In this document: one piece after another, positions 4,512 to 61,120 of the stretch
Layout: each line of letters begins with the position of its first letter
Numbering within the stretch: the stretch's first letter is position 1
Assembly (NCBI GenBank): GCA_965222715.1
Contig: OZ244961.1
Coordinates: 204,609-268,608 of the forward strand
Direction of reading: 5' to 3'
From: Minisyncoccota bacterium
GTDB taxonomy: Bacteria; Patescibacteriota; Minisyncoccia; Phycocordibacterales; JABMNX01
Length of the DNA stretch: 64,000 bases
Made by a program: the position numbers and the translations under genes
The notes under the pieces: generated by a model
The model's input: only the letters and a program-made list of their open reading frames with translations
Told to the model about the DNA's origin: nothing
Database searches by the model: none

Positions 4512-5783
4512 ATGTTAGATATTCAGTTTATTCGAGAGAACAAGAAACTCATTGAAGAGGGCGCACGTAAAAAGCGCATGGATGTTGACATTGATCGACT
4601 CATTACCATTGATGATAAACGTCGAGAACTCCTTAGCTCTATTGAAAAGAAACGTGCACAACAAAACAGTGCAAACGACAGTATCACAAATACAGAAGAT
4701 CAGACTGAAAAGGATCGGCTTATCGCAGACATGAAAGGCATAAAAGAGGCGATCCAAAAAGAAGAAGAAGTATTAAAAGGAGTGATGGAAGAGTGGCAAG
4801 CTCTCATGCTTCAGGTACCTAACATTCCTGACATGTCAGTACCCGAGGGGGAAGATGACGCTGACAACAAAGAAATTAAAGTTTGGGGGGAGAAGCCACA
4901 ATTTTCTTTCACTCCAAAGAGTCACGTTGAGATAATGACAGAACTTGATATTGCTGACTTTGAGCGGGGTACAAAAGTACACGGTTTTCGTGGATATTTT
5001 TTAAAAAAGGATGGCGCACTACTTTCGTATGCTATTTGGAATTACGCACACGAGTTCTTTCTTAAAAAAGGGTTTGTGCCACTTCTTGGCCCAACAATTG
5101 TGCGCAAGAATAACCTCTACGGCACAGGACACTTACCAAATGATGCTGATGATGTGTACCACACACAAGATGACGATTATCTTATTGGGACCTCAGAGAT
5201 TTCTACTATGGGGTATCACTCAGATGAAATTTTAGATAAAAATGCATTACCGCTAAAGTACCTTGCCTTTTCTCCGTGTTATAGAAGGGAAGCGGGAAGT
5301 CATGGAAAAGACACCAAAGGACTCATTCGAGTACATGAATTCTATAAAGTTGAGCAAGTAATTTTGTGTGAAGCAAGTCACGAGGAGTCAGTGAAGTGGC
5401 ATGAGTGGATTAATCGAAATACTGAAGAGTTCATTGAATCACTCGGTATTCCGTATCATACAGTACTAAACTGCGGTGGTGATATTGGGCAAGGACAAGT
5501 AAAGAAATATGATATTGAGCTGTGGGTACCACTTGAGGAGAAGTACCGAGAGATTAGCTCAGCATCATACTTCCATGATTTCCAGACACGCCGTTTTAAT
5601 ACCAAGTATCGTGACGAAGAAGGCAAAGCTCGTTACGCACACTCACTAAACTGCACTGCTATACCAACCCCACGAGTACTCGTTTCATTGGTTGAAAACT
5701 TTCAACAAGAAGATGGGTCTGTAAAGATTCCCGAAGTATTAAGGCCGTACCTTGGTGGTAAAGAAGTAATCACAAAGAAGTAA
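4512..5783 (+). CDS. serS: seryl-tRNA synthetase
   Basis: 423 aa; N-terminal coiled coil + class II aaRS core motifs. Confidence 0.95.
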   Translation: MLDIQFIRENKKLIEEGARKKRMDVDIDRLITIDDKRRELLSSIEKKRAQQNSANDSITNTEDQTEKDRLIADMKGIKEAIQKEEEVLKGVMEEWQALMLQVPNIPDMSVPEGEDDADNKEIKVWGEKPQFSFTPKSHVEIMTELDIADFERGTKVHGFRGYFLKKDGALLSYAIWNYAHEFFLKKGFVPLLGPTIVRKNNLYGTGHLPNDADDVYHTQDDDYLIGTSEISTMGYHSDEILDKNALPLKYLAFSPCYRREAGSHGKDTKGLIRVHEFYKVEQVILCEASHEESVKWHEWINRNTEEFIESLGIPYHTVLNCGGDIGQGQVKKYDIELWVPLEEKYREISSASYFHDFQTRRFNTKYRDEEGKARYAHSLNCTAIPTPRVLVSLVENFQQEDGSVKIPEVLRPYLGGKEVITKK

Positions 5784-5784
5784 T

Positions 5785-6645
5785 ATGGGTATATTTGCTC
5801 GTCGTAGGACGATGCGTTCAGCAAAACGAATACAACAGATTCGGCGGCGGCTCTTGGTACGAGGAGGAATACTCCTTGCCATCATCATTATTGTACTTGG
5901 TGGACTCTCTTTTCTATCACACCACAAAACTTTTTTGATTGAACGTATTGTAGTGAATGGCAATAATGTAGTACAGAATGCAAGTATCGAACATCTTGCA
6001 CGAGAGACGTTTTCTGGAAGCTATTTCTATCTCTTCTCTCGCTCAAACAGTCTCATCTTTCCTTCGGGTGAACTTACGGCACGTATTCTTGAGAATATTT
6101 CACAAATTGAGTCGGTGGATATTGTGCGGACTGATCTACACACTATTTCAATTGATGTAGTTGAACAAAGACCGTTTGCGCTCTGGTGTCGTGAGTTTAT
6201 TATCGCCAAAGACAGCGAAGAAGAGAGTGAGGAAGAATGTTTTTTCTTAAACAGTGAAGGGTTTATTTTTGCTGAAGCACCAAACTTTACTGGAAATGTA
6301 TTCTTCCGTTTTTATGGTGAAGTGAAAGGTGATGAACCAATTCGAAAACGATATACTACTACCACTGAGTTTCTTCGCATGAATGTGCTCATCGATTCTT
6401 TAGAAGGCTTGGCGGTGACACCGATAGAACTTCGTCCAGAAAATGAGCAGGATTTCGCACTTTATCTTGAGGAAGGAGGAAAGATTATTTACAATCGAGA
6501 ACAACGCCCATCAGAAATAGTTGATAACCTAAAGGCAGTTCTGGATTCAGAATTGTTCAAAGAAGTTGGACTTGTAGGAACTGACTATATTGATTTACGC
6601 TTTGGTAACAAAGTCTACTTTAAAGCAAAAAGTGAGAGTAGGTAA
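5785..6645 (+). CDS. ftsQ: cell-division protein FtsQ/DivIB-like (N-terminal TM + POTRA)
   Basis: 286 aa; basic N-terminus, single TM, POTRA-like 'IERIVVNGNNVV' segment. Confidence 0.5.
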   Translation: MGIFARRRTMRSAKRIQQIRRRLLVRGGILLAIIIIVLGGLSFLSHHKTFLIERIVVNGNNVVQNASIEHLARETFSGSYFYLFSRSNSLIFPSGELTARILENISQIESVDIVRTDLHTISIDVVEQRPFALWCREFIIAKDSEEESEEECFFLNSEGFIFAEAPNFTGNVFFRFYGEVKGDEPIRKRYTTTTEFLRMNVLIDSLEGLAVTPIELRPENEQDFALYLEEGGKIIYNREQRPSEIVDNLKAVLDSELFKEVGLVGTDYIDLRFGNKVYFKAKSESR

Positions 6646-10142: not shown

Positions 10143-10592
10143 ATGTGTAAAGCATCGATTGTTGCACGGTATACCCGTGACGCACGACTTCACGACAGAC
10201 TTCGTCTGGGAGTCTCTGAACACGCTCTGCCGTTCTTTCACCAAGAGGGAGACTCCGACGGTGTCGTCAGTTGCGTGAAGCATGGTCAGCTGCTCGAGCT
10301 CGGGAACATCCCGCTGGAAGCCCAGCGGCGTCTCGGTATCTCATCGACGGTTCTCGCCGAGTTCGTCGAGGAACCGGACGATGTCTCTGATCAGGTCAAG
10401 CTTCTCGACGGCCGCACGATCGACTTATGGGAACTTTTCCCACCGGATGCCGATCTCGAGCAGTTGCTCGGCAGCATCTCCGAGATCACCGCGGTCGTCG
10501 GCGGCTCCGAAAGTCTTCGCGAACAGGATGACGGTGACGATTCGGCTGATACGCCGCATTCCGTTCGGGACTCGGACCTCATCAGCGCCTGA
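10143..10592 (+). CDS. acidic hypothetical protein (149 aa), GC-rich (~60%)
   Basis: AAGGAGG RBS before ATG 10143; strong GC shift relative to flanks; no homology recognised. Confidence 0.45.
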   Translation: MCKASIVARYTRDARLHDRLRLGVSEHALPFFHQEGDSDGVVSCVKHGQLLELGNIPLEAQRRLGISSTVLAEFVEEPDDVSDQVKLLDGRTIDLWELFPPDADLEQLLGSISEITAVVGGSESLREQDDGDDSADTPHSVRDSDLISA

Positions 10593-10641: not shown

Positions 10642-10707
10642 TTCAACTTGTAAAGTGTCTCTAATTAAGGCAAGATAAAGTCCACATTGTTTTATTCTTT
10701 CTAGAGC

Positions 10708-10778
10708 TGCCAGATCGTCTAATGGTAGGACGCCTGGTTTTGGTCCAGGTAATCTAGGTTCGAGTCCTAGTCTGGCAG
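10708..10778 (+). tRNA. tRNA-Gln (anticodon UUG)
   Basis: manual cloverleaf fold: acceptor TGCCAGA/TCTGGCA with U1:A72, anticodon loop TTTTGGT, T-loop TTCGAGT, discriminator G73; CCA not encoded. Confidence 0.85.
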
Positions 10779-10801
10779 CTTTGGACGGAATAATAGTACA
10801 C

Positions 10802-11531: not shown

Positions 11532-12302
11532 ATGAGTGGTATGAACTGGATTGGACTATGGACATTTTTACGACGAGAATACGAGCGTATTACGCGTATT
11601 AAAGTGCAAACATTTGGTGCGCCACTTATTTCAGCATTCCTTTTTATTTTTATTTTTGGATTTGTGCTGGGAAGAAAGATTGATTTAATTGCAGGTATTC
11701 CATACATGCAGTTTGTCTTTCCAGGAATTTTGACCATGAGCGTGCTCTCTGCTGCGTTTGAGCACACATCAAGCATTATTTATTTTGGACGATGGCTGCG
11801 CACTATTGATGAAATGTTAGTTTCACCATTTTCATACATTGAAATGGTTATTGGGTTTGTGGGGAGTGCGGTGTTGCGTGCACTTACTATCGGGGCAGGG
11901 GTACTCGTTATTGGACTTTTGTTTGGTGCAGTCCAGGTTTCTAACATTTGGTTATTCCTCCTTGTTGCTGGTGCTGTTGCGGCGATCTTTGCACTAGTGG
12001 GTATTTTAGTGGGACTTTGGGCCAATAGTTTTGAGCAGCTTGGTATATTGAACACCTTTATTATCATGCCTCTCTCAATGCTTGGTGGTATGTTCTACTC
12101 TATCAACCTCCTCCCCGAAACCATTCAAACGATTACTCTTTTTAATCCATTTTTCTACTTCATTGATAGCATGCGGTTTGCAACACTTGGCTACCATGAA
12201 TCAAACCTCCTCATTGCCTCACTGTTAATCGGCGGACTAGTACTCGGCCTTGGCGCATTAGTGGTTTACTTATTCCACAAAGGCTGGCGAATACGCCACT
12301 AG
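11532..12302 (+). CDS. ABC-2 family transporter permease
   Basis: 256 aa, 6 TM, ABC-2 topology; immediately downstream of ATPase. Confidence 0.8.
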   Translation: MSGMNWIGLWTFLRREYERITRIKVQTFGAPLISAFLFIFIFGFVLGRKIDLIAGIPYMQFVFPGILTMSVLSAAFEHTSSIIYFGRWLRTIDEMLVSPFSYIEMVIGFVGSAVLRALTIGAGVLVIGLLFGAVQVSNIWLFLLVAGAVAAIFALVGILVGLWANSFEQLGILNTFIIMPLSMLGGMFYSINLLPETIQTITLFNPFFYFIDSMRFATLGYHESNLLIASLLIGGLVLGLGALVVYLFHKGWRIRH

Positions 12303-12323
12303 GAGGCTCAGAATATACAAAAT

Positions 12324-12349
12324 AAACGCCAAAGGTACCTTTGGCGTTT
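12324..12349. terminator. terminator hairpin, member of repeated family AAACGCCAA-(palindromic loop)-TTGGCGTTT
   Basis: perfect palindrome AAACGCCAAAGGTACCTTTGGCGTTT flanked by A and T tracts. Confidence 0.6.
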
Positions 12350-12511
12350 ATTTATACACAGGTAGAGTTATAGCATTGCTTGTATGTAGTAAATAGGTGG
12401 TATACTTTTCTCGAACGTGATGAGCGTTTCGGTGGAGATAGGTAAGAATCCGCCGGGGAATTAATGAGTTTTCTAGAAGTGTCGCTCGACACCCTAGAAG
12501 GCAAGCTCACA

Positions 12512-15359: not shown

Positions 15360-15397
15360 GCATAGGTACTATAACTAAAGCTGCAGAAGCTTGAAAT

Positions 15398-15423
15398 AAA
15401 CGCCAAGAGTACTCTTGGCGTTT
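15398..15423. terminator. terminator hairpin AAACGCCAAGAGTACTCTTGGCGTTT (family copy 2)
   Basis: perfect palindrome with A/T flanks. Confidence 0.6.
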
Positions 15424-15473
15424 ATTTTTGCTTTTTAAAGCCACAATGCGGCTTTTGTTTATACACAAGGTGT

Positions 15474-29188: not shown

Positions 29189-29205
29189 AGCGAAGTAGAA
29201 CATAG

Positions 29206-29233
29206 AAAACGCCAAGAGTATTCTTGGCGTTTT
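29206..29233. terminator. terminator hairpin AAAACGCCAAGAGTATTCTTGGCGTTTT (family copy 3)
   Basis: perfect palindrome. Confidence 0.6.
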
Positions 29234-29305
29234 CTATAGGATGGCTTAGCTAAGCCATGTAAACACCTTAAGTGCTCAAGGTGTTTCCAAAGGTGTTTCT
29301 AAGAA

Positions 29306-58948: not shown

Positions 58949-58953
58949 AAAAT

Positions 58954-58979
58954 AAACGCCAAGAGTACTCTTGGCGTTT
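58954..58979. terminator. terminator hairpin AAACGCCAAGAGTACTCTTGGCGTTT (family copy 4)
   Basis: identical to 15398-15423. Confidence 0.6.
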
Positions 58980-59004
58980 ATTGTGGCTCTAAACAGCCAC
59001 AGTT

Positions 59005-59038: not shown

Positions 59039-59899
59039 ATGAATAGAGTGGTGCAGATTACTAAAGCCGACGGTACACAAGAAGCTTTTGACCCCCAAAA
59101 ACTTGAGCAGTCTCTAAGGCGTGCTGGGGCAACCTCTTCTGTTATCACGGATATTGTTCAAAAGATAACTTCCGAACTTAAAGAAGGAATGACAACAAAA
59201 AAGATTTATCAGCGGGCATTTGCACTCCTTCGTAGAAAAGAACACACTCCTGTTGCAGCAAAATATTCACTTAAAAAAGCGGTTTTTGATCTTGGGCCAA
59301 GCGGCTTTCCATTTGAGGACTTTGTTGCAGAGATTTTTAGAGCACGAGGGTACAGCGTGACAGTGGGGAGTGTTCTTAAGGGAAAGTGTGCTGAGCACGA
59401 AGTTGATATTGTTGCACATGCTTCACCCGAAAAGAATAAGGACTCGTTTGGTGGTGAAGTTAAATTTCATAACCACCCTGGAGTAAAAACTGATTTAAAA
59501 GATGCACTCTACGTGCATGCGCGTTTTGAAGACCTCTCAGGTACTGCTCGCACTTCAGAAGGAAGTACCATTGTCTCAGGGAAACTCATTACCAACACTA
59601 AGTTTACTGAGAATGCTATCAAGTACGGTGAGTGTGTCGGACTTTCATTGCTAGCATGGGACTATCCCGCGAAAGGAAATCTTTTTGAACTCATTGGTGA
59701 GACAGGGCTGCATCCGCTTACTTGTTTAACTACACTACCAAAGCGAGATGCTAAACGACTGCTTGAAAATAAAATTGTATTGTGTCGATCAGTTAAGAGT
59801 AATCCTAGTATTTTAGAAGAATTTGGTGTTTCTCGGAAAAAAATACCAGATATTCTCAATGAAATAAGCGCCTTGTGTCAACCAGGTGCTGGAGTGTAA
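59039..59899 (+). CDS. ATP-cone domain fused to Mrr-cat/PD-(D/E)xK restriction-endonuclease-like domain
   Basis: N-terminal ATP-cone (VVQITKADGTQEAFD...KK..R); C-terminal FEDFVAEIF...EHEVDIVAH...GEVKF nuclease motif. Confidence 0.6.
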   Translation: MNRVVQITKADGTQEAFDPQKLEQSLRRAGATSSVITDIVQKITSELKEGMTTKKIYQRAFALLRRKEHTPVAAKYSLKKAVFDLGPSGFPFEDFVAEIFRARGYSVTVGSVLKGKCAEHEVDIVAHASPEKNKDSFGGEVKFHNHPGVKTDLKDALYVHARFEDLSGTARTSEGSTIVSGKLITNTKFTENAIKYGECVGLSLLAWDYPAKGNLFELIGETGLHPLTCLTTLPKRDAKRLLENKIVLCRSVKSNPSILEEFGVSRKKIPDILNEISALCQPGAGV

Positions 59900-59942
59900 A
59901 ATGGACCATATTAGTAAATACACCAATAAAGACGTCAGCATG

Positions 59943-60470
59943 GAAAAAGTAAACCGAAACACTATCATTTCATTCATTATTGGTGTCATTGTGGGCCTCT
60001 TTGTTTTTTGGTTGTGGAGCGCAACGATGAATCAACTTCAGGTACGAAACACTGAAGAAACTAACTTAGAGTACAGCACTGAGGTTAGTGAAGACACAAC
60101 TCCTCAAGATACGGAAACAAGTGACATTATTAACACACCAGCACCTCAGCTCCGTAGTGATGCGATTGTGGTACAAAACCAAGCCGCCGGTTCACAAGTG
60201 GTAGTAACCCGTGCAGTGTTTGATGAATCTGGGTGGGTAGTTGTTCACGAAGGAAATGGTGAACAGATTGGAAATGCTCTTGGTGCATTACGTTTTGATG
60301 AAGGTGAGCATAGTGGTGTTGTTGAATTACTTCGTGCCACAGAGGAGGGTGAAGTGTACTGGGCAGTTCTGTATCGAGACAATGGAGATAAAGAATTTAG
60401 TCTGGAGACTGATTTCCCATTCATTCGAGAAGGCAATCAACCAGTACTCACTACCTTTCGAGCACTGTAA
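59943..60470 (+). CDS. membrane-anchored hypothetical protein (acidic ectodomain)
   Basis: TM after MEKVNRN; start uncertain (59886/59901/59943). Confidence 0.4.
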   Translation, partial: EKVNRNTIISFIIGVIVGLFVFWLWSATMNQLQVRNTEETNLEYSTEVSEDTTPQDTETSDIINTPAPQLRSDAIVVQNQAAGSQVVVTRAVFDESGWVVVHEGNGEQIGNALGALRFDEGEHSGVVELLRATEEGEVYWAVLYRDNGDKEFSLETDFPFIREGNQPVLTTFRAL

Positions 60471-60491
60471 ATACTATACTTAGAACAATGG

Positions 60492-60612
60492 ATCCCGTTA
60501 GAGACCGCGGTCACATAAGGTATAATCAAGAAGTATGAAAAAAGGTCGAACAAAAGTTTATAAAATAATTCTCGTACAGGGCGCTGAGATCGCAACCTGT
60601 CTCTAACGGGAT
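60492..60612. repeat. 14-bp perfect inverted repeat ATCCCGTTAGAGAC ... GTCTCTAACGGGAT bracketing a 93-bp AT-rich segment that contains TATAAT (60521-60526) and ends on the mgtC start codon
   Basis: read directly from sequence. Confidence 0.5.
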
Positions 60613-61120
60613 GGAACCATTTTTCTCTGGATCACTTCTCATACTCTTTGGACAACTAGTCCTCGCCGCATTTCTTGGGATGGTGTTGGGTACTGAACGC
60701 TCAGTAATCGCTGATAAGCGAGCGGGGACACGAACATATGCTCTTGTTTCCCTTGGTGCCTGTCTATTTTCAGTTGTCTCATTAAGTGTAACCACTGGAT
60801 ATCTTGGGTTGGTGAGTTTTGATCCTATGCGTGTTGCAGCAGGAATTATTACTGGTATTGGATTTCTCGGTGCCGGAATTATTATTTTTCAAGACAATAA
60901 GTTGCAAGGTCTTACTACTGCTGCTGGTCTATGGGTCGCAGCAGGTATTGGAGTTGCGGTTGCCTATAGCATGTATGCTATTGCAATTTTCACCACCATC
61001 GTGACACTGTGTATTTTCACAGTACTATGGTTTGTTGAGAATCGACTTGATGATGTGATTGATACACGGAATAAACTTCGATTTGTTAAAAACAAAAATA
61101 CAGAAGAGCGAAGAGATTAA
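60611..61120 (+). CDS. mgtC: MgtC/SapB family membrane protein
   Basis: LGMVLGTERS...GLVSFDPMRVAAGIITGIGFLGAGIIF MgtC signature. Confidence 0.8.
   Translation: MEPFFSGSLLILFGQLVLAAFLGMVLGTERSVIADKRAGTRTYALVSLGACLFSVVSLSVTTGYLGLVSFDPMRVAAGIITGIGFLGAGIIIFQDNKLQGLTTAAGLWVAAGIGVAVAYSMYAIAIFTTIVTLCIFTVLWFVENRLDDVIDTRNKLRFVKNKNTEERRD

Follow-up and report, generated by a model that had tools for sequence, protein, structure and literature searches.

A 64,000-nucleotide stretch of the genome of a Minisyncoccota bacterium (Patescibacteriota; assembly GCA_965222715.1, contig OZ244961.1, positions 204,609 to 268,608; hereafter the window) carries a perfect inverted repeat at the start of a gene of the MgtC/SapB family, mgtC. 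The repeat very probably represents the terminal inverted repeats (TIRs) of a 119-bp non-autonomous mobile element inserted at A|TGGA of the ancestral mgtC start codon and, judged by its ends, the element is a member of a large family in Patescibacteria (Parcubacteria-type genomes). With a probability that we put at roughly 0.5, Patescibacteria harbour self-contained elements of ~275 bp that consist of a single 86-amino-acid (aa) GIY-YIG gene bounded by its own TIRs. Such elements would settle on ATGRR starts, translate their nuclease from the host start codon, pass the ribosome on through a stop-start overlap composed of the right TIR and the duplicated target, and spawn deletion derivatives of ~60-120 bp that keep this relay, while a TIR-less lineage would act likewise at the 5' ends of tRNA genes. 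No prior description of the family was found in the literature searched by sequence, concept and protein family, in which GIY-YIG genes of candidate phyla radiation bacteria were mentioned only in rRNA insertions and gene-transfer lists.

An insertion at the mgtC start codon

The inverted repeat consists of ATCCCGTTAGAGAC (60492-60505) and GTCTCTAACGGGAT (60599-60612), perfect reverse complements of 14 bp each with 93 nt between them, just as an earlier reading made from the letters of this DNA (the sequence-only reading) had described. It is the sole pair of perfect 14-mers spaced by 20-200 nt in the window, where 0.057 such repeats are expected and where at least one arose in 3.7% of 300 Markov simulations. 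Judged on these window statistics alone, a chance origin is unlikely, though not decisively so. An expectation of one in ~18 windows would leave some room for a chance repeat without significance, but more than 120 independent contigs with the same arms, spacing and genomic setting already refute that reading, the probability of which we regard as negligible.

All features of the locus described here lie on the forward strand. The repeat separates a gene for a DUF7282 membrane protein (59886-60470; Pfam PF23951, E 3e-14) from an intact mgtC open reading frame (ORF) of 169 aa (60611-61120; Pfam PF02308, E 1e-32), and the first two bases of the mgtC ATG (60611-60613), A and T, fall within its right arm, in agreement with what had been read from the sequence. 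The encoded MgtC matches P0001 at 100% identity and aligned homologues from Kaiserbacteria and Paceibacteria, its closest relatives, at 61-76%, and the N-terminus (MEP, MES, MDP or MEV) begins at the same ATG in 36/36 aligned MgtC homologues. The gene order MnmA, ATP-cone/Mrr, DUF7282, MgtC is shared by the window and its Kaiserbacteria-like relatives, whereas the gap between the last two genes measures 140 nt in the window vs. 10-20 nt at five loci of these relatives (L081, L082, L083, L212 and L216), which represent four distinct orthologous junctions, with L082 and L083 counting as one. At each of them, ATGGAACC/ATGGAGCC stands 10-20 nt past the DUF7282 stop. The orthologous sites are therefore polymorphic for the presence of the element, which occupies the site in the window while these four junctions are empty. 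No element at mgtC was present among the (mostly distant) matches listed from a profile scan of genome contigs with an MgtC alignment. At one further locus (L214, 849-1001), the DUF7282-mgtC gap holds a different insert of ~150 nt, which has an inverted repeat of its own (AACTTACGCACTTGG / CCAAGTGTGTAAGTT) and is unrelated to the family.

The junctions in the window read ...GAACA ATGGA|TCCCGTTAGAGAC...GTCTCTAACGGGA|TGGAACC, and the corresponding empty mgtC junction would read ...GAACAATGGAACCATT.... In the best parse, a left TIR (TCCCGTTAGAGAC, 60493-60505) and a right TIR (GTCTCTAACGGGA, 60599-60611) of 13 bp each bound a putative 119-bp, non-autonomous element (60493-60611), assigned to what we call subfamily A, which is absent at the orthologous loci and the ends of which recur elsewhere. 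Outside the TIRs stand two identical copies of TGGA (60489-60492 and 60612-60615). The sequence-only reading had taken the flanks ATGGAT/ATGGAA for a target-site duplication; the repeat is real, and its limits are better drawn as these 4 bp outside 13-bp TIRs, the 14th base pair being accidental because the target ends in A. The left ATG (60488-60490), which lies 17 nt past the DUF7282 stop at a place where relatives have 10-20 nt, would be the ancestral mgtC start codon, and it now opens a short upstream ORF (uORF1). The start of today's mgtC is composite, as the final A of the right TIR is the A of its ATG, and the right copy of TGGA gives the TG together with the first two bases of codon 2. 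Translated from the left ATG, the left TIR reads (N/D)PVRD; the right TIR contains a TAA stop in one frame and is open in the frame of mgtC. The 119 bp hold only ORFs of 16 and 23 codons and no mobility gene. Thus, the mgtC copy combines 13-bp TIRs, a 4-bp duplication, small size and empty orthologous sites, the structural hallmarks of MITEs (miniature inverted-repeat transposable elements). This had been the third of three interpretations offered from the sequence, and it is the one that gains support here, both from the empty site in orthologues and from the more than 120 further copies with co-varying flanking repeats described below; the other two, an RNA helix acting as a sensor and paired operator half-sites, do not.

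A family of short copies at the starts of unrelated genes

A scan of metagenomes with the pattern CCGTTAGAGAC-N75-105-GTCTCTAACGG, for which we estimate ~3.5 chance matches, yielded at least 128 copies on at least 120 contigs, and the family-wide counts of short copies given below refer to the copies among these listed contigs. The contigs stem mostly from groundwater and similar samples, and named host proteins on them indicate Patescibacteria and Liptonbacteria. The 128 copies listed are 98-130 nt long with variable, AT-rich interiors, and the nearest to the window element among them are 75-78% identical to it. The base pair next to the core is T...A in 107/123 copies, which extends the TIRs to 13 bp, and a flush 4-nt direct repeat (TGRR) stands outside the TIRs in 78/123, with repeats of 5-7 nt in five more. 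The left flank has the consensus A-T-G-A-A, and most of the 128 copies show the typical arrangement ...ATGRA|TCCCGTTAGAGAC...GTCTCTAACGGGA|TGRA followed by an ORF. Moreover, the flanking repeats co-vary on both sides (ATGAA/ATGAA, ATGGA/ATGGA, ATGAG/ATGAG, ATGCAA/ATGCAA). Scanning of viral contigs gave no arm pair; seven viral matches to an 18-mer of the right end trace to one phage locus that has no left arm, and were set aside as a chance match.

Where enough downstream sequence was available, the ATG next to the element begins an ORF of 60 codons or more in 82 of 113 copies. This position is taken by no fewer than 80 unrelated genes, housekeeping genes in the main: ssb (three times), def, rpoC, secY, ruvC, rbfA, rplW and rpsR, as well as rnc, rnhA, glyS, tsaD, polA, pilB/C, ychF and others. 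Such a range of targets excludes a regulon or a riboswitch. The two bases past the ATG are AA, GA or AG in 94% of copies vs. 38% of background genes, and this excess indicates a real preference for TGRR on top of the position at a start codon. A co-directional upstream ORF ends within 100 nt in 59/99 copies, its stop often overlapping the left copy of the ATG (ATGA); neighbouring genes in these genomes frequently overlap by ATGA. Similarity is higher between copies of one contig (0.64-0.99) than between random pairs (mean 0.59). Two to three copies are present on each of L114, L117, L134, L145, L202 and L241, compared with one in the 64 kb of the window, and a regenerated ATGAAT junction is common to tandem copies.

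Two variants of this arrangement were observed. In thirteen copies (L086, L107, L108, L121, L155, L164, L168, L173, L181, L188, L193 and L200) the outermost TIR pair is C...G, the flanking repeats are more varied (TAAA, CGAA, TGAA, TGGA), and insertion on a start codon creates a GTG start. Further, L131 (2010-3064) and L168 (8592-8815) contain arrays of ~50-nt units with the same arms, joined by GTCTCTAACGGGG-TAAA-CCCCGTTAGAGAC hairpins, which have the appearance of tandem or nested family remnants.

Polarity of the copies and regulatory readings of the locus

The ends of the element are mutually palindromic; the interior is asymmetric, with CCT ahead of the right TIR in 112/128 copies, and this CCT/hairpin end points toward the gene in 79 copies and away from it in 3. 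A local hairpin of at least 6 bp ahead of the CCT, of the form AC-GG-N...N'-CC|T, is present in 72 of the 112 copies vs. 1.3% of shuffles, and the stems of at least 5 bp comprise 66 distinct sequences. In subfamily A, the second helix is instead long-range, since CGCGGTCG beside the left TIR pairs over ~8 bp, in most members, with CGACCGCG before an ACCT bulge that recurs across the subfamily. In the minimum-free-energy fold of the window copy, this pairing (P2) joins GCGGTC (60507-60512) to GATCGC (60588-60593) and leaves the spacer AACCT (60594-60598) unpaired ahead of the right TIR; (A)CCT is the asymmetric feature by which orientation is defined throughout the family. The small palindrome that had been pointed out in this region, GACCGCGGTC, exists as described, at 60503-60512 and not at 60502-60511.

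These folds bear on the first of the earlier interpretations, according to which a long-range RNA helix specific to mgtC hides the start codon in response to Mg2+ or a metabolite. In the predicted read-through RNA, the 14-bp helix does bury the mgtC AUG (-39.5 kcal/mol, z = -2.0), and two short uORFs are present, both in favour of such a leader. Of the five distinct orthologous junctions of mgtC, however, four lack the segment and the fifth (L214) carries an unrelated insert; the same ends stand ahead of over 80 genes that are unrelated to one another; conservation does not extend to the interior; and the flanking duplication marks an insertion. In addition, the region has no Rfam match, either at the gathering threshold or at E = 10, and the earlier remark that it does not resemble the M-box riboswitch stands. 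The comparative data already contradict an mgtC-specific leader, which we consider extremely improbable. The element is not a Mg2+ sensor, and the occlusion of the start codon in the predicted fold is possibly a side effect of insertion rather than the work of an evolved sensor. RNA initiated at the internal promoter-like site would exclude the left arm, and no unusual structure is predicted for it (z = -0.45).

That promoter-like site is the starting point for the second interpretation, in which the arms are paired operator half-sites of mgtC or, by extension, the ends of an inverton, i.e. an invertible promoter switch. The TATAAT reported earlier is indeed present at 60521-60526, and together with a TAGAGA hexamer 16 nt upstream that falls within the left TIR it forms a site with 10/12 matches in a consensus scan (60499-60526), so that perfect arms do enclose a consensus -10 element. 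An inverton, by contrast, would be expected in mixed orientation, and the copies point one way (79 vs. 3); the arms are flanked by target-site duplications; and the downstream genes form no regulon. For operator half-sites, too, the absence of the segment from other mgtC loci, the unrelated genes behind the same ends and the lack of interior conservation are adverse. Across the family, -10-like hexamers number 134 and 124 on the two strands of the element, without strand bias, and a conserved outward promoter as a family feature was rejected on this ground. We therefore regard operator half-sites or an inverton as very improbable.

Full-length members encode a GIY-YIG nuclease from end to end

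Full-length members of the family measure 273-278 bp. Between the 13-bp TIRs known from the short copies, they hold one gene, for an 86-aa GIY-YIG nuclease of the UPF0213/SLX1-like branch. They occur at L224, L230, L137, L217, L102 and L241, with the same TIRs or a one-base variant, and with a TGAA duplication at start codons. In L137 and L102, the TIRs enclose ~273 bp that encode a nuclease of 86-88 aa, and the full-length ORFs score E 1e-16 and 2e-14 against the Pfam GIY-YIG profile. The junctions read ACAATGAA|TCCCG...CGGGA|TGAAGATT ahead of a CTP_transf_3 gene in L224 and AAATGAA|TCCCGCTAGAGAC...CGGGA|TGAAAGAT ahead of a response regulator in L230, while the copy in L217 lies between the genes for glycogen synthase and a GH57 protein, with the TGA of the nuclease overlapping the GH57 ATG.

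The TIRs are part of the gene. The codons TTC CTG TCT CTA ACG GGA, at the end of the nuclease gene (C-terminus ...KRFLSLTG), are the CC|T spacer and the right TIR, the latter encoding the final LSLTG, and a protein search with the nuclease returned 4277 clusters, mostly of 85-86 aa and 70-81% identical, all of which end in ...GMGKRYLKNRLKRFLSLTG. At the other end, variants of 94-95 aa begin with MNPVRD..M, which results when reading starts at the duplicated host ATG and passes through the left TIR. The AlphaFold model of the nuclease (pLDDT, the predicted local distance difference test, 90.9) has UPF0213 BH0048 as its nearest solved structure by Foldseek and hidden Markov model searches (1zg2; E 1e-10, 35% identity), followed by SLX1 (7cq2, 4xlg) and then by the catalytic domain of I-TevI. 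The invariant residues Y3, Y5, Y16, G18, R24, R26, H30 and E62 are of catalytic type, and the 86 aa comprise the catalytic domain only, with no separate DNA-binding domain.

The short copies can be related to these elements. A nhmmer profile built from five full-length elements matches short copies at 1 to ~100 and at 253-275, with E-values down to 3e-10, and matches to both ends identify the short copies as internal deletions of full-length elements. In the full-length members, the codons for DLRKRF (ACGGAAGCGCTTTAA) can form a long-range helix with those for LKRFL (TTAAAGCGCTTCC-T-GT), and compensatory synonymous changes among the copies preserve this pairing; the comparison indicates that the hairpin of the short copies is the remnant of that helix in the nuclease gene. 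Moreover, in L241 a variant TIR pair (CCCCGTTAGAGAT / ATCTCTAACGGGG), changed in both arms, recurs within 20 kb in a full-length copy and in five short ones, and the terminal G of this variant provides a GTG start for the host gene.

A classical MITE moved in trans by a conventional transposase, with the GIY-YIG gene as a passenger or a separately selfish gene, has in its favour that TIRs with a duplication of fixed length are the hallmark of DDE transposition, that strand transfer by GIY-YIG nucleases is not known, and that full-length copies gave no sign of recent jumps. This reading sits poorly, however, with an ORF that spans the full-length element end to end and takes both TIRs into its extended frame, with the conservation of the TIR-encoded C-terminus in 4277 clusters, with short copies that are deletions of the nuclease ORF, and with a TIR variant that co-varies between the full-length and short copies of one genome. 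Further, a search of ~0.8 Mb of element-bearing contigs for TIR pairs 250-4000 bp apart, allowing up to 3 mismatches, detected adjacent short copies and the 273-bp copy with the GIY-YIG gene, but no conventional insertion sequence or other larger element bounded by these TIRs. On balance, mobilisation by a conventional transposase appears improbable, although it is the least improbable of the alternatives.

Several relatives depart from the standard form. In L231 (385-675), a decayed full-length copy with degraded TIRs lies between a YgjP-like gene and radC; its nuclease ORF is extended to ...LSLTGAEKR*, the same locus recurs in 14 contigs from many samples, and the copy has possibly been immobilised or domesticated. 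In L241, three copies of 59 nt (5697-5755, 5892-5950 and 10328-10386) carry the genome-specific TIR variant, flanked by TTTA on both sides at 5892 and 10328 and by TTTA/TACA at 5697. With the 4-bp duplication, they add 63 nt in frame within a Wzy_C gene and a DUF4430 gene. The same contig holds a bare TIR hairpin of 29 nt (11986-12014) with a TTGA duplication, and from this hairpin and the in-frame intragenic copies it follows that targeting is not absolute and not confined to start codons. Finally, there is a second lineage of small GIY-YIG proteins (81-90 aa, Pfam E 1e-15 to 1e-16) without TIRs, at L180 (7965-8201), L135 (654-854), L191 (4602-4805) and L097 (123-320). These ORFs lie directly 5' of a tRNA gene (Gly, Ser, Trp or Gln), the 5' segment of which is duplicated upstream of the ORF, in what looks like the same strategy of inserting at a start and regenerating it, here at tRNA genes.

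A possible reading relay across the element

Two of the frames of the right TIR contain stops (cTC TAA and, with a TGA- target, GGA TGA), while the frame of the gene itself is open. From an intact left ATG, an ORF reaches the right-TIR stops in 25/64 copies and fuses in frame with the gene in 1. Through-reading is thus seen in 26/64 real copies, as compared with ~10% of shuffled or reverse-complemented interiors. When re-initiation near each stop is allowed, 62% of copies, vs. 22% expected, have a relay that is completed in no more than four steps (p = 3e-12), and 39/40 complete relays take one or two steps. The peptides end differently according to frame (...SCL* or ...LSLTG*) even inside a subfamily, from which we conclude that it is the openness of a frame, and not a peptide, that is conserved. 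In the window, uORF1 (MDPVRDRGHIRYNQEV*, 60488-60538) begins with the ancestral ATG and ends with a TGA that overlaps the uORF2 start codon (ATGA). From there, uORF2 (MKKGRTKVYKIILVQGAEIATCL*, 60535-60606) runs to a TAA within the right TIR, which leaves 4 nt to the mgtC ATG. Of the copies with an intact left ATG, 13/64 have a comparable relay in two steps.

The sequence-only reading had observed that mgtC lacks a Shine-Dalgarno sequence. This is true but uninformative, since these genomes show no general enrichment of such sequences: GGAG, GAGG or AGGA occurs at -18 to -4 in 10% of long ORFs vs. 9% of random 15-mers (loci L085-L204 and the window). In view of this and of the many targets with stop-start overlaps, it is plausible that hand-over of ribosomes could maintain translational coupling across the insertion and melt the terminal helix. 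Ribosome hopping was also considered and is ruled out by frame arithmetic (ATGG|GGAACC is out of frame).

A proposed mechanism and the points against it

Taken together, these features suggest the following scheme. The element would have inserted into the TGGA of the ancestral mgtC start and duplicated these four bases, whereupon the A of the right TIR and the duplicated TG would have rebuilt an ATG, leaving mgtC intact with its start moved 123 nt downstream. The GIY-YIG nuclease may mobilise full-length and short forms alike by reading the rod formed by their ends (TIR helix, a T or ACCT bulge, second helix); recognition of folded or cruciform ends, with a 4-nt staggered cut at targets of the T-N-R-R type, is suggested by the conserved rod and the SLX1-like affinity of the nuclease. 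From the sequences we infer both transposition of the family and activity of its nuclease. Selection would then filter the copies, so that survivors are those that spare genes, mainly at ATGRR start codons in the orientation with an open path, and to a lesser extent as in-frame intragenic insertions. Expression of the host gene would proceed by relay, with initiation at the old ATG, translation through the element, a stop in the right TIR either at the TAA (-7) or at a TGA overlapping the ATG, and re-initiation at the gene. In the window, the course would be uORF1, the ATGA overlap, uORF2, 4 nt and mgtC, to which the fortuitous TAGAGA-16-TATAAT promoter may add transcripts without the left arm.

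Several points weigh against the proposal of a self-contained, relay-keeping family. The window itself contains neither a second copy of the arm pair (up to 3 mismatches allowed) nor a GIY-YIG gene of the element family in its 64 kb, and the internal TATAAT promoter is peculiar to the window copy and not a family feature. The interior of subfamily A has no detectable homology to the nuclease gene, and the subfamily is tied to the family by its identical TIRs, (A)CCT spacer, target, duplication and orientation. No complete relay exists in 38% of copies; among shuffles, chance yields a two-step relay in ~8% and a complete one, whatever its length, in 22%. The metagenome copies were selected by exact arms and are those on the contigs listed, which biases the frequencies toward intact copies. 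The 4-bp duplication could have another origin. Identical nuclease proteins on many contigs turned out to be one locus each in different samples and were rejected as evidence for recent jumps of full-length copies. Finally, GIY-YIG enzymes are to our knowledge hydrolytic nucleases and not strand-transfer enzymes, and we know of no transposition chemistry for them.

Comparison with known elements and enzymes

In form, the short copies recall the Correia/NEMIS elements of Neisseria, which likewise are ~100-150 bp long, have perfect TIRs and a short target duplication and occur in many gene-adjacent copies, and the TIRs of which can pair in mRNA upon co-transcription, some copies also supplying promoters. 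Correia elements target TA and are intergenic regardless of start codons, their parent being unknown or presumed to be an insertion sequence of the DDE type, whereas the Patescibacteria copies sit on a start codon and rebuild it in nearly a single orientation, maintain an ORF relay and have a GIY-YIG parent. Another parallel is offered by the Rickettsia palindromic elements (RPEs), inasmuch as the 59-nt copies of L241 likewise add 63 nt in frame inside ORFs; RPEs, for which we know of no enzyme, are in-frame peptide insertions in coding regions, in contrast to the present family, which is found mainly at start codons with a putative stop-start hand-over in place of a fusion. The TIR helix of Correia elements is cleaved by RNase III in mRNA, and RPEs are small palindromic elements tolerated at or in genes by keeping a usable frame (PMC10969869). 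From the bacterial MITEs described so far (Correia, RPE, ERIC and BOX; PMC10969869), the family differs by the regeneration of a start codon, by orientation together with the relay, and by a parent that has a GIY-YIG gene only.

With the free-standing GIY-YIG homing endonuclease genes (phage T4 seg, I-TevI-type), the full-length elements share a selfish character, a nuclease as sole product and a related fold. The homing endonucleases, however, have a DNA-binding domain of their own and a long specific site in one gene, and lack TIRs and target duplications; the Patescibacteria element is a bare 86-aa domain with 13-bp TIRs and a 4-bp duplication, found at many unrelated gene starts, and its insertion sites have only ATGRR in common, unlike a specific site of the homing type. 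UPF0213/YhbQ and SLX1 are the closest solved relatives by sequence and fold, and differ in being cellular repair-type proteins without bounding TIRs. SLX1 cuts branched DNA, which would fit an enzyme reading the rod or cruciform of the element ends, and by this analogy we infer structure-specific cleavage by the element nuclease. The leader of Salmonella mgtCBR (mgtM/mgtP) and the M-box share with the locus an mgtC-family gene preceded by short uORFs and alternative helices, but neither matches it in sequence or structure, and the window segment is a generic insertion that is absent from orthologues.

Other types of element were considered and set aside. In integron attC sites, the core sites are ordered 5'-RYYYAAC...GTTRRRY-3' and are located 3' of the cassettes; the Patescibacteria elements show the opposite order (GTTAGAG...CTCTAAC) and are placed 5' of genes, on the start codon. 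Helitron or IS91-like and IS200/IS605-like readings are ruled out by the TIRs and duplications.

Consequences for genome annotation and further repeats in the window

If the proposal is correct, few of the self-contained mobile elements known would be as small as these, and a bare GIY-YIG domain would drive them in place of a transposase; the family would also illustrate how a selfish element can occupy essential genes of streamlined genomes (rpoC, secY, ssb, ribosomal proteins) harmlessly, by means of a rebuilt start and a ribosome relay. The called starts of genes would be shifted or extended by insertions in thousands of metagenome-assembled genomes of Patescibacteria; effects of this kind are seen in the 94-95-aa nuclease variants and in in-frame N-terminal extensions. 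Mobile-element genes are probably the source of the abundant small proteins that carry the annotation 'excinuclease ABC subunit C' or 'GIY-YIG' in these genomes. Upstream inverted repeats of this type can, moreover, pass for regulatory RNA, as happened in the first reading of this locus.

Two further kinds of repeat occur in the window. Near-identical perfect palindromes, AAATAAACGCCAAGAGT / ACTCTTGGCGTTTATTT, are found at 12320-12353, 15394-15427, 29202-29237 and 58951-58982; one palindrome of this type lies directly past the mnmA stop, and they resemble terminators or repetitive extragenic palindromic (REP) hairpins. At 10692-10793, an inverted repeat with arms of 23 nt (83% complementary) brackets a tRNA gene (10708-10778) and extends past its acceptor stem.

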